The notes: generated from the sequence alone by a model not told the origin. A stretch of 64,000 nt of DNA from Escherichia coli (GCA_031701365.1 GCA_031701365.1_4118.1), one strand, 5' to 3'. Counted from the first letter of the stretch, positions 11,711-15,619 are shown. A program made the numbers and translations.

Positions 11711-11739
11711 TTGACATCCTTTCAGTACTGGTGTACTAT
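11711..11739 (+). promoter_or_regulatory. sigma70-like promoter for family A array
   Basis: TTGACA-17-TACTAT, then AAGGAG and ATG at 11765. Confidence 0.6.
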
Positions 11740-11764
11740 AGAAGGAATATAAGGAGAACTACAC

Positions 11765-11992
11765 ATGACAAATACTCTTAAGTACTACATCAATACTCTA
11801 AATGAACTAGAGTACGGGGAATTTCTCTCGGATAGTTCGTGGCTAATTGAGCTAAAAAATTATAATAGTCCAGGATGCACCCTTATGATGAACAATGCAA
11901 TTGATACCCTCATTGTGAGTATTTTACACAGCAACATCTGCGGGGATAGCAATAAACAATTATCAAAAATCTTAGTACTGCTATCTATATGA
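11765..11992 (+). CDS. small protein, paralog family A
   Basis: 75 aa; SD AAGGAG; first gene after promoter. Confidence 0.6.
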   Translation: MTNTLKYYINTLNELEYGEFLSDSSWLIELKNYNSPGCTLMMNNAIDTLIVSILHSNICGDSNKQLSKILVLLSI

Positions 11993-12192
11993 ACATTGAA
12001 CAGTTCTACATCGATGCACTACCAACAAAAGGTCTACGAGAAAGCCTACTGTATACACAAAATACTTTTATACACTACAAACGTTGTCCTAAACTCCTGA
12101 ACTCGTACAGGAGTAATATCATAAGAAATGCTTTACAAGGGGCAGAAAGTATGCAATACTATTATATCCTTGCCCTTTTAATCGAGTACTAA
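11989..12192 (+). CDS. small protein, paralog family A
   Basis: 67 aa; start overlaps upstream stop; C-term YYYILALLIEY. Confidence 0.6.
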   Translation: MNIEQFYIDALPTKGLRESLLYTQNTFIHYKRCPKLLNSYRSNIIRNALQGAESMQYYYILALLIEY

Positions 12193-12193
12193 T

Positions 12194-12403
12194 ATGAATA
12201 CTGAACATAAAGAATTCTACACCAAATACCTTAGCAACGAAGAACAATTGTTTCTAAGGAGTGTATCACCTTTAAGTATAGATACACCACACGCCAGAGA
12301 TTGCTTTAATAATTGTATACGTAGTACGCTAGAAGCAATCGAATGTAATAACAAAAATATTATGTACTCAGGTTTAATAGGACTAATCTACTTCTATGAA
12401 TAA
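12194..12403 (+). CDS. small protein, paralog family A
   Basis: 69 aa MNTEHKEFY...; close paralog of 15217-15426. Confidence 0.65.
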   Translation: MNTEHKEFYTKYLSNEEQLFLRSVSPLSIDTPHARDCFNNCIRSTLEAIECNNKNIMYSGLIGLIYFYE

Positions 12404-12590
12404 TCATAAAGATTTCTATTGTAGTAAACTACCCAAACAAGAACAGCTATCATTCTCTTTAGCACCACCTATGAGAAAGGATAATCTGTATTATAATTAC
12501 GATTTCAGGATGGTGACACGTTATGCAATAGAACATACGTTCCCTGAAACTAAGTACCGCTCTATCCTGAACCTCATCTTTAAGTTCTAA
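12396..12590 (+). CDS. small protein, paralog family A
   Basis: 64 aa MNNHKDFY...; 8-nt overlap with upstream gene. Confidence 0.6.
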   Translation: MNNHKDFYCSKLPKQEQLSFSLAPPMRKDNLYYNYDFRMVTRYAIEHTFPETKYRSILNLIFKF

Positions 12591-12642
12591 AAGGTGCAAC
12601 AGGGACCGAGTACTTTAATATAGTAAGGCTAATTACATTATA

Positions 12643-12828
12643 ATGAATCATATAAGCTATTATTACCAACAACTATCCGACAGAGACAAGTACAGTCACA
12701 ACTCCCATGTGTGGTACTACAAACGCGGCAGTATAAGAGACAAACAACATTACTTCTGTATTTCTATTAAAGAAGCACTAACAACTAAGTACACGTACCG
12801 AGCAGTACTTAAACTTATTGAAATGTAA
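12643..12828 (+). CDS. small protein, paralog family A
   Basis: 61 aa; C-term AVLKLIEM. Confidence 0.55.
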   Translation: MNHISYYYQQLSDRDKYSHNSHVWYYKRGSIRDKQHYFCISIKEALTTKYTYRAVLKLIEM

Positions 12829-12836
12829 GGAAGAAA

Positions 12837-13019
12837 ATGAATATAGAATTCTATTTAACTAAACTACAACACGCCGAAAGATTCAACTTCAATAAGTTCA
12901 ATATTTTCTACAATTGCGGGAACAAAAAAGATAAACACACCTTCCTATATGTCGTCACAAGAGATGCACAAAACGAAAAGTACACATACAGAGAAGTAAT
13001 GAAACTAATCGCTATTTAA
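12837..13019 (+). CDS. small protein, paralog family A
   Basis: 60 aa; C-term EVMKLIAI. Confidence 0.55.
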   Translation: MNIEFYLTKLQHAERFNFNKFNIFYNCGNKKDKHTFLYVVTRDAQNEKYTYREVMKLIAI

Positions 13020-13027
13020 GGAATACT

Positions 13028-13207
13028 ATGCAACAATTCTATAGAGAACGTATAACCATAAAAGACCGTTTCATGTACGACACATTCGTGAAGTACTACA
13101 AACTAGGAACAAAAAGTACTAAAAATATTAATCTCAATAGCTGCATTTATACTGTACTAACACAAGATAATCCCTACAGGGAAATCCTCGCACTGGCATC
13201 TATATAA
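13028..13207 (+). CDS. small protein, probable family A member
   Basis: 59 aa MQQFYRER...ILALASI, found by manual translation (below ORF-track cutoff). Confidence 0.4.
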   Translation: MQQFYRERITIKDRFMYDTFVKYYKLGTKSTKNINLNSCIYTVLTQDNPYREILALASI

Positions 13208-13217
13208 AGGAAACCAA

Positions 13218-13889
13218 ATGAAACTCAATCCACAAAGTAAACGATACCTACAGCACTTTAAGTACTTGCAATCCATCCAGGCTGAATCTATTACTAATGC
13301 ATATACGTATCACCCTAATGTACTAAAGAACCTAAAGAAAAGTAAAAAAACCAGTACAAATGGAGTTAACGTATCAAAGAACCTTGAATTGTACATGAAG
13401 AAAAATAATATAGCTGTTCATTATATGAATATCTATAATACTGATTTAAAAGTATTGAGTACTAATACGAGCACGAAGGTACTAAAGAACGCATCCTTCA
13501 TCATCAATATGCAGTTGGATAATACCCCGTGCACTTTAATGCTATACTTCGGGAATACATACTTCTTCGGGAATTGTAACACCTCCCACGATGTCAATAC
13601 AGCACAATTCCAAATGGGTGGCATATACTCTACTGATGCAGAAAAAGTACACGAGAATATGCACTTCTGGCAAGCACAACGTACAGAAGAAACTAAATCA
13701 ATTGTAGATTTCCTCAAAGAACTAGAACACAAAGATCTACAGGAAGAAGAACTATTCATGTACAGTACTGTAATCAATAATCCAGAGTTGTACAAAAACG
13801 CGTACAATCTTACAAAACATGTACAGGAACTTATCAGTACTAATAAGAAAATGCATCACCTCATTACATATATTGCAAACTATGCATAA
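13218..13889 (+). CDS. hypothetical protein with family C-like core
   Basis: 223 aa; contains EEELFMYSTVINNPE resembling the EExxFQxS core of family C. Confidence 0.6.
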   Translation: MKLNPQSKRYLQHFKYLQSIQAESITNAYTYHPNVLKNLKKSKKTSTNGVNVSKNLELYMKKNNIAVHYMNIYNTDLKVLSTNTSTKVLKNASFIINMQLDNTPCTLMLYFGNTYFFGNCNTSHDVNTAQFQMGGIYSTDAEKVHENMHFWQAQRTEETKSIVDFLKELEHKDLQEEELFMYSTVINNPELYKNAYNLTKHVQELISTNKKMHHLITYIANYA

Positions 13890-14064: not shown

Positions 14065-14066
14065 TC

Positions 14067-14255
14067 ATGTATAAAGAATACTACGTAAGTAAACTTACAA
14101 TTAATTACCAAAAGCTTATTACCCGCGAACCTGTAAATTTTAAAGATAAGAGCAACACAAGATACTACCGCACGCATATAATTCGTACAATAGAAGAAGA
14201 ATATGATGATATGTATAACCTGTACAATGTACTAAATCTAATATACAGGTACTAA
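14067..14255 (+). CDS. small protein, paralog family A
   Basis: 62 aa MYKEYY...LNLIYRY. Confidence 0.65.
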   Translation: MYKEYYVSKLTINYQKLITREPVNFKDKSNTRYYRTHIIRTIEEEYDDMYNLYNVLNLIYRY

Positions 14256-14256
14256 T

Positions 14257-14448
14257 ATGAATAATGAACATAAAGAATACTACCAAGAACATCTCCCAAT
14301 ACATCTTCAACACCTTGTGCCAACAAAACCTATTGGCATAAAAGATCATGCAAAAATAATGTTCCAACAATGTACTAAGTACACCCTAATATACGATGAC
14401 AATCCATATATGCTGTACTACGTAGTAATGCTAACATTCAGGTACTAA
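14257..14448 (+). CDS. small protein, paralog family A
   Basis: 63 aa MNNEHKEYY...MLTFRY. Confidence 0.65.
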   Translation: MNNEHKEYYQEHLPIHLQHLVPTKPIGIKDHAKIMFQQCTKYTLIYDDNPYMLYYVVMLTFRY

Positions 14449-14449
14449 T

Positions 14450-14629
14450 ATGCACAAATATAAAGAATTCTACCTCTCGTACCTTAATTCCGATATAGTA
14501 ACATCCAATACCTTCAGTACTAAAATTATCTATAATGAATTAATGAAAGAATGTATTAAAGGTGCTATTAACCCTAAAGATACGTATGACTTGTACTATG
14601 CAGTACTAACCCTTGTTTTCACGAAATAA
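14450..14629 (+). CDS. small protein, paralog family A
   Basis: 59 aa MHKYKEFY...LTLVFTK by manual translation. Confidence 0.45.
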   Translation: MHKYKEFYLSYLNSDIVTSNTFSTKIIYNELMKECIKGAINPKDTYDLYYAVLTLVFTK

Positions 14630-14637
14630 CACATAAT

Positions 14638-14829
14638 ATGAATAACCACAAAGAATACTACATAGAGAAACTCCCAATGCATCTACAATACCTTGTACCA
14701 ACAGAACCATTGCGTATAGAAAAAGACTACGAAAAAGACTACTTCATTAAGTGCACTAAATCCTCGATAGATATTGAGGACTATAATCGAGTACTGTATC
14801 ATACCCTGTACCTAGCTTTCGTATTCTAA
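14638..14829 (+). CDS. small protein, paralog family A
   Basis: 63 aa MNNHKEYY...LAFVF. Confidence 0.65.
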   Translation: MNNHKEYYIEKLPMHLQYLVPTEPLRIEKDYEKDYFIKCTKSSIDIEDYNRVLYHTLYLAFVF

Positions 14830-14838
14830 GAGAACAAT

Positions 14839-15024
14839 ATGCATAAAGAATTCTACTTAAGCCATCTGGATCTAAACTCCCAAATGCTTATACCACTAAT
14901 CCCAATAGATATCAAGGATAAGAAAAATACCGAACAATTCATTTACCATACACAGTGTGCGATCACCCCAAATTACATTCCATATGAATTGTACTACATT
15001 CTCGCCCTAATATATAGGTACTAA
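14839..15024 (+). CDS. small protein, paralog family A
   Basis: 61 aa MHKEFY...ALIYRY. Confidence 0.65.
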   Translation: MHKEFYLSHLDLNSQMLIPLIPIDIKDKKNTEQFIYHTQCAITPNYIPYELYYILALIYRY

Positions 15025-15025
15025 T

Positions 15026-15211
15026 ATGCATAGGGAATACTACACACAATTTGTTAAAGGGAACTACAAACATGCCGTACCCAGAACCCCTTTAAATTCT
15101 CATGACCCAAGTACTATATTCTTGTTTAATGACGCAATACGCACAGTACTCAATACTAAAGATGAAGATGTGCAGTACGTATTCTTACTATTACTTATAT
15201 ACAGACACTAA
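15026..15211 (+). CDS. small protein, paralog family A
   Basis: 61 aa MHREYY...LLIYRH. Confidence 0.65.
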   Translation: MHREYYTQFVKGNYKHAVPRTPLNSHDPSTIFLFNDAIRTVLNTKDEDVQYVFLLLLIYRH

Positions 15212-15216
15212 CTAAT

Positions 15217-15426
15217 ATGAATAAAGAACATAAAGAATTCTACTCCAAATACATAAGCCCCTCAGAACAAATGTTTCTAAGGACTACACCACCTTTAAGT
15301 ACTGATACTCACTTCGGCAGAGTATGCTACAATAATTGTGTACAAATGACTTTAAACGCAAACGCCGATGATAACAGTACTAACCTGTACTCAGGTATCA
15401 TAGGTATACTATTCCTATATGAATAA
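15217..15426 (+). CDS. small protein, paralog family A
   Basis: 69 aa MNKEHKEFY...; close paralog of 12194-12403. Confidence 0.65.
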   Translation: MNKEHKEFYSKYISPSEQMFLRTTPPLSTDTHFGRVCYNNCVQMTLNANADDNSTNLYSGIIGILFLYE

Positions 15427-15619
15427 AGAATATAAAGACTACTATATAAGTAAACTAAAAAAGAATGAACAAGTGTGGATTAACGCTCTAATTCCTCTAT
15501 TAATGACTCGATATGAATTTAATAAATGTACCAAGATAGTAATAGACCCTTGTCCTGTTCTAGAGAATGTACAGTACAATCAGTACTACTACATGTTAAT
15601 ACTTATATATAGGAAGTAA
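15419..15619 (+). CDS. small protein, paralog family A
   Basis: 66 aa MNKEYKDYY...ILIYRK. Confidence 0.6.
   Translation: MNKEYKDYYISKLKKNEQVWINALIPLLMTRYEFNKCTKIVIDPCPVLENVQYNQYYYMLILIYRK

Follow-up and report, generated by a model that had tools for sequence, protein, structure and literature searches.

The window analysed here, a stretch of 64,000 nucleotides deposited as Escherichia coli DNA (GCA_031701365.1), carries on its + strand a tandem array of small paralogous genes, delineated by ORF listing and translation as an uninterrupted run of 17 consecutive open reading frames (ORFs) at 11765-15619. Sixteen of these encode proteins of 59-75 aa and one (13218-13889) a protein of 223 aa. 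An all-against-all BLASTP comparison joins 14 ORFs (59-69 aa) in a single linkage cluster at E<1e-3, and a hidden Markov model (HMM) profile built from these 14 and searched against all 970 six-frame ORFs of the window recovers the same 14 at E-values of 1e-16 to 1e-24, with none other below 0.01. A broader profile (A3), which defines membership in what is called family A below (a match over the N-terminal HKEYY and the C-terminal YY.IL.LI helices in a protein of about 60 aa), retrieves the 14 ORFs at 1e-14 to 1e-26 and also 11989-12192 at 9e-4. The latter ORF is the best non-member match of the window-only profile (E=0.018), its orthologs reach E<1e-3 with the broader profile in four relatives, and it is probably a divergent family member. 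Two ORFs cannot be tied to the family: membership of the first one (11765-11992) is not demonstrable (HMM E=2, 4-7 bits; hhalign probability about 1.7%), and the 223-aa ORF, considered as a fused or triplicated member, yields no HMM match and an hhalign probability of 0.5%. A first-pass annotation of the sequence had counted 17 small paralogs in one operon. This count is too high and is better given as 14 solid members and one probable member; the tandem array itself is borne out by the solid paralogy of the 14 genes, purifying selection, stop/start coupling and one conserved promoter.

The letters used below denote family members clustered at 65% identity after the family profile was searched against six relatives (121Q, G17, slurp01, JP4, EC.P1 and JNE01), so that seven phages are sampled. 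The array, entirely on the + strand, opens with the leader ORF (11765-11992, 75 aa), which is of the same size class, matches no PHROG or Pfam family, keeps its position in relatives and shows a ratio of non-synonymous to synonymous substitution rates (dN/dS) of 0.39 against EC.P1. An ATGA start/stop overlap leads to the probable divergent member J (11989-12192, 67 aa), followed by A (12194-12403, 69 aa) and, through the 8-nt overlap ATGAATAA, K (12396-12590, 64 aa). The sole sizeable gap (12591-12642, 52 nt), in which G17 and slurp01 have the extra gene W, precedes B (12643-12828, 61 aa), M (12837-13019, 60 aa) and C (13028-13207, 59 aa). Beyond the unrelated 223-aa ORF (13218-13889) lie D (13882-14064, 60 aa), X (14067-14255, 62 aa), E (14257-14448, 63 aa), N (14450-14629, 59 aa), a chimeric F/L member (14638-14829, 63 aa), G (14839-15024, 61 aa), H (15026-15211, 61 aa), O (15217-15426, 69 aa) and the last gene, I (15419-15619, 66 aa). 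Both the BLASTP cluster and the HMM place all of these members except J in the family, and A also matches PHROG 11711. The ORF of D was listed as 13819-14064; its start is most likely at 13882 (MHKEYY), overlapping the stop of the 223-aa gene by 8 nt, in agreement with the annotation of the 121Q gene at the same position.

Several particulars of the first-pass annotation agree with this map. The gaps between genes range from -8 to +10 nt, with the single exception of the 52-nt gap, in line with the starts it described as overlapping or close to upstream stops; the two members it gave as just under 60 aa (13028-13207 and 14450-14629) both have 59 aa; and its shared N-terminal M(N)xHKE(Y/F)Y and aromatic/aliphatic C-terminus correspond to the two conserved blocks of the family profile, an N-terminal (M)N.HKE[YF]Y motif and a hydrophobic/aromatic C-terminus. 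The description of A and O as close duplicates, by contrast, is too strong. They are the closest pair of an array in which paralogs share 15-54% aa identity, and their own identity is only 53.6% (BLASTP E 4e-28), or about 73% at the nucleotide level as judged via the 121Q copy of A, which encodes an identical protein.

A megablast search with 11700-15700 against 50,697 phage records matches 34 of them, without exception jumbo phages (about 350 kb) of Escherichia or Salmonella that belong to the 121Q/PBECO4/slurp01/G17 group, genus Asteriusvirus. The top matches reach 91-96% identity over 79-89% of the query, and no record is identical. The window thus derives from an Asteriusvirus-type E. coli jumbo phage of the 121Q/PBECO4 group. 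Matching genes in the related records are labelled "hypothetical protein" or lack annotation. A large share of the array genes is unannotated in phAPEC6, PBECO4, Sharanji, EC.P1, UB and other Asteriusvirus records, with just 4-8 "hypothetical protein" features under the array match or none under individual members, so that the gene counts of these phages are underestimated.

In the G17 record, the first and last 20,668 bp are 100% identical (a direct terminal repeat), in addition to the published terminal redundancies of about 20 kb derived from sequence coverage (PMC6563267). Mapping of the boundary sequence onto the window places the inner end of the G17 repeat at 15903/15904, 284 nt past the last stop codon of the array, and the outer end near 36096, so that 15904-36096 is the equivalent of the terminal repeat. 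The array is therefore the first coding DNA outside this region and is transcribed towards it. The intervening non-coding DNA belongs to a stretch of about 2 kb (15620-17582) that lacks ORFs longer than 85 aa, is about 85% conserved with JNE01, contains the 15903/15904 boundary and includes an 8-bp tandem repeat array (ACGGCTAA and variants, 16679-16812) and four TTTTGGGCGTA repeats; this stretch may be a packaging, terminus or replication-related region.

Upstream of the array lies a sigma-70-type promoter, TTGACA-17-TACTAT (11711-11739, +), with the palindrome CAGTACTG in its spacer (11723-11730), followed by the Shine-Dalgarno sequence AAGGAG of the first ORF (11751-11756, +), the only canonical one in the operon. 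The promoter named in the first-pass annotation is thus present and conserved, while the consensus match by itself is not above chance (19 promoter-like sites in the region against 29.9 expected). What supports it is that TTGACA and AAGGAG are invariant in the seven phages; the -10 element is TACTAT throughout except for TACAAT in JNE01, and the 103-nt intergenic region shows 95% column-wise conservation in all seven, including one with unalignable array coding sequence. With a conserved sigma-70-type -35/-10 pair upstream, the array has the predicted layout of an early unit of the host RNA polymerase. Within the array, no terminator-like site was found on the + strand, and weak promoter-like sites occur at 12615-12644 (in the 52-nt gap) and at 14333.

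The junctions between the genes are tight. Three starts stand behind TAAGGAA, where the upstream stop codon doubles as part of the site, and the remaining junctions are TAA-T-ATG, ATGA or 8-nt overlaps (ATGAATAA or ATGCATAA). Five genes end with AGG TAC TAA, so that the arginine codon places an AGG about 10 nt 5' of the next start. Given that most genes have no ribosome-binding site of their own and are coupled stop to start, a ribosome loaded at AAGGAG can re-initiate along the array.

The CAGTACTG palindrome occurs 57 times in the window, against 0.85 copies expected. The arrangement of a -35-like hexamer, the box and a -10-like hexamer is found at the array promoter (11711) and at eight other sites, all between 16.2 and 34.8 kb, seven on the + strand (16237, 19354, 21264, 25266, 27739, 33122 and 34767) and one on the - strand (21698); all eight lie inside the terminal-repeat-equivalent region. 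This common layout suggests that the array shares regulation with genes of the terminal repeat, and CAGTACTG is a candidate operator or promoter element for both. Twelve of the 57 copies, mostly as TTCAGTACTGA, are packed in an ORF-free stretch just past the array (15825-17499). An 88-nt unit is present in three copies (17532-17619, 17992-18079 and 18309-18396), each before a small gene, and consists of a promoter-like GTACTTGCA(A/T)ACTA-N-TATAAT followed by a GC-rich hairpin, GGTGGGGAATAGTTCCCCAC; similar units with TATAAT and a hairpin lie 3' of several CAGTACTG-box sites.

Comparison with JNE01 delimits the array as a hypervariable island. The flanks are 82-97% identical at the protein level and 85-95% at the nucleotide level (the adjacent RCC1-like genes 97% and 82%, three downstream genes 84-94% aa identity), whereas the best JNE01 matches of array members reach only 19-59% aa identity, the highest being that of H (59%), and no match to the leader ORF is detectable in JNE01. 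Nucleotide similarity of about 91% runs to 11758, seven bases 5' of the first start codon, is reduced within the array to three short patches of 70-73%, and returns (about 85%) at 15653, 34 nt past the last stop. The variable block so delimited coincides exactly with the coding sequence of the operon, and conservation holds for the promoter on one side and for the non-coding DNA on the other, downstream side.

Among closer relatives the array differs by cassettes. In gene order, with [223] for the 223-aa ORF, the window reads J A K B M C [223] D X E N F G H O I; 121Q, J A K B M C [223] R E F D L G H P I; G17, (J) A K W B M C [223] R E F D L G H P I; slurp01, J A K W B Q M C [223] E N F D L G H O V P I; JP4, J A K B S T U Q C [223] E N F D L G H O V P I; and EC.P1, J m B S T U Q C [223] E N F D L A G H O n I. 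JNE01 has 14 members, none of them 65% or more identical to any member of the other six phages. The profile-detected copy number in the seven phages is 14, 15, 15, 15, 19, 19 and 20. In each of the five close relatives, member D occupies a later position than in the window, between F and L. Member X is private to the window phage, its nearest relative among the 50,697 phage records being 62.9% identical (phage A4) and the others at most 46%.

The member at 14638-14829 records how such differences can arise. In a three-way nucleotide alignment, its 5' portion of about 165 nt follows 121Q gene 259 (F), and from ATCGAGTACTGTATCA onward its sequence, including the stop codon and the junction to the gene that follows, is that of 121Q gene 261 (L) without a difference, so that the crossover lies in ATCGAGTACTGTATCA, a 16-nt identical stretch. 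The chimera shows directly, by alignment, that unequal crossover has taken place between the conserved 3' ends of two paralogs. A "PNVALGI" patch shared by member E of JP4 and member F of slurp01 hints at gene conversion as well. The array evolves by unequal homologous recombination between paralogs via their conserved ends, and this recombination has changed copy number (14-20), reordered the genes, and produced private members and at least one chimera. With tandem paralogs whose copy number varies among close relatives, and with a chimeric copy, the array resembles a gene accordion.

The array frames are coding. For each window gene, the most divergent ortholog among the five close relatives was compared, and the counts were pooled: differences affect 99.8 of 509 synonymous sites and 187.2 of 2125 non-synonymous sites (pS 0.196, pN 0.088), giving a dN/dS of 0.41. 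If changes were spread in proportion to sites, only about 55 synonymous ones would be expected; this excess together with the dN/dS value indicates purifying selection. Flanking genes give 0.23-0.26 in four of five comparisons, and the 223-aa gene and the leader ORF about 0.38-0.40, so that constraint on the array is moderately relaxed relative to the flanks and nowhere near 1. All 15 family frames are intact in the window and the six relatives, and the family profile matches the annotated frame only.

In database searches, 11 of the 17 ORFs match phrog_11711 (best E 4.1e-26; e.g., 14067-14252 spans profile positions 1-62 of 62), and this profile misses four members (13028-13207 among them), the leader ORF and J, the probable divergent member. 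The family is thus catalogued, and in that sense assigned to a known one, but PHROG 11711 carries no function and does not explain the array away. Beyond this PHROG, no relative was found: searches against Pfam, NCBIfam and PADLOC give no match below E=0.03 and none near the gathering score, and a sequence profile search of the PDB gives 0 matches at E<=10. A word-indexed search of 5.8 billion proteins yields 43 clusters, and an exhaustive profile search of 1.84 billion representatives just 29, all of 44-69 aa. Divergent representatives traced by tblastn reside in the Asteriusvirus-type genomes JNE01, Turkey5 and A4, and each of the 29 clusters that was traced belongs to this phage group. Matches in the phage collection are all to Escherichia or Salmonella jumbo phages (36 records with H as the query, and likewise for four other members). 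An IMG/VR search with the single protein query P0049 and an Rfam scan of 11000-19000 returned no match. Family A therefore appears to be an orphan family found in this phage group only.

An AlphaFold2 model of member E, derived from a 47-sequence alignment (mean pLDDT 77), contains four helices (residues 4-11, 15-18, 30-45 and 50-60), and a fold search with the family model identifies no significant structural neighbour. Amphipathic or transmembrane character, raised in the first-pass annotation as something to check, is not supported: no transmembrane segment is predicted (Kyte-Doolittle means over 19 residues do not exceed 1.02), the C-terminal hydrophobic stretch of about 11 residues corresponds to helix 4 (residues 50-60), and the modelled structure is that of a soluble helical bundle. 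A small membrane protein (holin, exclusion or tail-anchored protein) was rejected for lack of a membrane-spanning hydrophobic segment. Among the paralogs, conservation is concentrated in the first and last helices (HKEYY..L and YY.IL.LI.RY) and the connecting stretch is the most variable; within orthogroups, the inter-helix stretch accumulates 4.9 replacements per site against 2.2-3.0 in the helices. In terms of the model, the first and last helices are the conserved scaffold. The proteins are enriched in tyrosine, at 11.3% compared with 6.3% in the rest of the window, and depleted of glycine (1.5% compared with 5.2%); their pI ranges from 5.2 to 9.4. At 12001-16000, the coding strand of the array carries more C than G (GC skew about -0.15) and markedly more A than T (AT skew about +0.2), whereas in the + strand genes downstream G exceeds C. 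The skew fits the make-up of the family, in which Gly, Ala, Val and Asp are scarce and Tyr, His, Asn, Lys, Ile and Leu are abundant.

The 223-aa ORF (13218-13889) matches phrog_29152, a PHROG of unknown function, over its full length (E 5.5e-143) and stands mid-array in all seven phages. Its protein is variable (66-92% identity among database homologs, 38% to the JNE01 ortholog), has homologs confined to the same phage group and contains no detectable Pfam domain; its AlphaFold2 model (pLDDT 41) is too poor for a fold search.

Other multigene families make up much of this 64-kb arm. About ten RCC1-like paralogs of 357-433 aa (787-11661, -) are transcribed divergently from the small-gene array and are also cassette-variable: the copy adjoining the array promoter (10459-11661) is 97% identical to its JNE01 counterpart, but against 121Q, JP4 and EC.P1 its best matches reach only 25-30% identity. 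Two RCC1-like homologs, gp549 and gp551, are virion proteins in phAPEC6 (PMC7247149). On the + strand, 25 small proteins of 63-90 aa with an "LGTNYQE" motif are encoded at 36164-55453, most of them in the run 36164-43023, beginning about 70 nt past the outer limit (about 36096) of the region equivalent to the terminal repeat. A link between this family and family A was considered and rejected (hhalign probability 0.5%). Two further + strand paralog families comprise seven proteins of about 106-125 aa (41597-57651) and eight of about 146-164 aa (51190-60438).

Cassette variation between near-identical phages suggests that the array proteins are aimed at the host. We tentatively favour, with a confidence that stays a little short of even, the interpretation that the array encodes early, non-virion effectors directed at the host (or at a competitor), each combining a constant scaffold with a variable binding region and diversified as a gene accordion. 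The grounds are that a host-type promoter lies beside the terminal repeat, that the small soluble scaffold has a variable middle, that cassettes turn over in a lineage-specific way, and that the proteins are absent from the virion of phAPEC6, whose mass-spectrometry table contains none of them even though detection extended to a protein of 4.66 kDa (PMC7247149). Under this scheme, the host RNA polymerase would transcribe the operon early, from a promoter whose CAGTACTG box is common to sites in the terminal repeat; each product, by means of the variable middle of its helical scaffold, would have its own host or competitor protein as binding partner; and the array would act as a battery of counter-defence or host-takeover proteins whose diversity is kept by an arms race.

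Several points weigh against such effectors. No Asteriusvirus transcriptome was found in the literature, and early timing is predicted from the type and position of the promoter, in a region that is not enriched in promoter-like sites; given the weak internal sites at 12615 and 14333, a single transcript is putative. No similarity of the proteins to a characterised anti-defence or host-takeover protein was found. The dN/dS is only modestly above that of the flanks and well below 1, so that positive selection is not demonstrated, and exchange of cassettes among lineages could also yield the island without an arms race.

A more specific proposal is that the conserved gene ends and the stop/start junctions double as crossover sites, so that recombination-driven cassettes would continually yield fresh gene orders, copy numbers and chimeras of the variable middle in phage populations and supply an open-ended repertoire of inhibitors, each tuned to a different host immune protein, which would amount to a new class of counter-defence with diversification built in. 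This we consider doubtful. An anti-CRISPR-type operon, in which unrelated small acr inhibitor genes precede an aca regulator, was rejected: the members are paralogs, and no ORF of the operon has a helix-turn-helix (HTH) or Pfam domain.

A role internal to the phage seems improbable; without any host target, the products would serve as small regulators, bind DNA, or act as dedicated partners or chaperones for the RCC1-like array. The divergent transcription of two equally expanded arrays fits such a role, which has a parallel in the lineage-specific expansions of small putative DNA-binding proteins known from other jumbo phages (about 35 copies of a zinc ribbon in phage G; PMC7824862). The repertoires of the two arrays vary independently, however, and dedicated partnership with co-variation was rejected on this account: the RCC1-like genes of the window and JNE01 are 97% and 82% identical where the small-gene arrays are unalignable, and the first six members of the window and 121Q (11989-13207) are 93-100% identical next to an RCC1-like gene whose best match is about 30%. 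A DNA-binding function, for its part, is disfavoured by the absence of an HTH or zinc motif and of any Pfam match in the family, and by pI values (5.2-9.4) that are not uniformly basic.

In phage T4, the internal-protein locus is polymorphic, and its products, which carry an N-terminal capsid-targeting signal, are injected and disarm host defences. By analogy, the array could encode packaged internal proteins, the N-terminal motif being a capsid-targeting or processing signal and the proteins being injected with the DNA against host defences. The short conserved N-terminus of otherwise highly diverged small proteins, the polymorphism of the locus among close relatives and the presence of two neighbouring RCC1-like paralogs among the phAPEC6 virion proteins (PMC7247149) all fit this proposal, which we nevertheless regard as very improbable. 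The promoter is of the sigma-70 kind, with a layout also seen at promoter-like sites of the terminal repeat, and the C-terminus is as conserved as the N-terminus in what is modelled as one compact domain, so that the N-terminus looks like part of the scaffold, not a removable signal. A T4-type capsid-targeting sequence ends in an L/I-x-E protease site, and no such cleavage motif follows the N-terminal block here. Finally, the array proteins are missing from the phAPEC6 virion table despite detection at 4.7 kDa (PMC7247149).

The array products could also be weapons against competing phages, serving superinfection exclusion or inter-phage conflict instead of countering host immunity. We give this an equally low probability. 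The early-type promoter, hypervariability and cassette turnover speak for it as they do for host-directed effectors, and the two appear otherwise inseparable on sequence alone; many exclusion proteins have a transmembrane segment, whereas family A has none.

Decaying or selfish repeats, with ORFs open by chance and no selection for a protein product, would agree with the missing annotation of many of these ORFs in several deposited genomes, but are barely credible, being effectively refuted by dN/dS and the synonymous excess (99.8 against about 55), and disfavoured by 15 intact frames in the window and six relatives, profile matches confined to the annotated frame and an AlphaFold2 model of moderate confidence (pLDDT 77).

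Jumbo phages are under development for therapy, and most of their genes have no known function. The array offers, within such a genome, a sharply delimited hypervariable island of about 15 orphan genes that evolves by recombination between paralogs. If the products are indeed host-directed effectors, they would provide dozens of natural variants of a tiny scaffold for finding inhibitors of E. coli and Salmonella defences, and the array could help explain differences in host range between nearly identical phages.

Part of this picture is already known: the genes are deposited and clustered as a PHROG, and paralog expansions in jumbo phages and accordion-like evolution in viruses have been described. 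PHROG 11711 and PHROG 29152 are the same families by sequence, with entries that carry neither a function nor a description of the array, and the Asteriusvirus genome papers and a jumbo-phage review were found to contain no function, array description or analysis of its dynamics. The closest comparison for the mode of evolution is with viral gene accordions and multigene families, such as poxvirus K3L amplification and the MGF families of ASFV, which resemble the array in tandem paralogs, copy-number differences, recombination between repeats and location in a plastic genome arm. The difference is one of age, since the array copies are old (15-54% aa identity), in contrast to recent identical amplifications. 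In T-even phages (T6), anti-defence loci are likewise documented to undergo segmental amplification (PMC13096335).

No homing endonuclease was identified in the array, in which no ORF has a significant Pfam match. The hyperplastic regions of T4 consist of small genes, mostly unrelated ORFans, that differ between otherwise collinear, highly similar genomes. Like these regions and the T4 internal-protein locus, the array is a set of small variable genes between conserved flanks of collinear genomes, but the island is made of a single paralog family. It differs from the T4 internal proteins in lacking a capsid-targeting or cleavage motif, and none of its proteins is in the phAPEC6 virion table (PMC7247149).

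With regard to genomic position, the array is comparable to the takeover modules in the terminal repeats of SPO1, T5 and Twort-like phages. In SPO1 and T5, small early host-takeover genes driven by strong host-type promoters are located at long direct terminal repeats or beside them. The array likewise consists of small genes behind a host-type promoter, and it ends 284 nt from a long repeat within which the promoter layout recurs; unlike these modules, it lies just outside the repeat, its members are paralogs, and its early expression is predicted from promoter type and position only.

Large lineage-restricted paralog families are common to the array and to other jumbo phages, namely Bacillus phage G, with about 35 zinc-ribbon copies (PMC7824862), and phAPEC6, with 11 RCC1-like genes (PMC7247149). 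Those expansions have recognisable domains (a zinc ribbon and an RCC1 propeller), whereas family A has neither a recognisable domain nor a fold neighbour. What the array adds to these known systems is an old, highly diverged, translationally coupled series of orphan genes of about 60 aa that forms a precisely bounded variable island.

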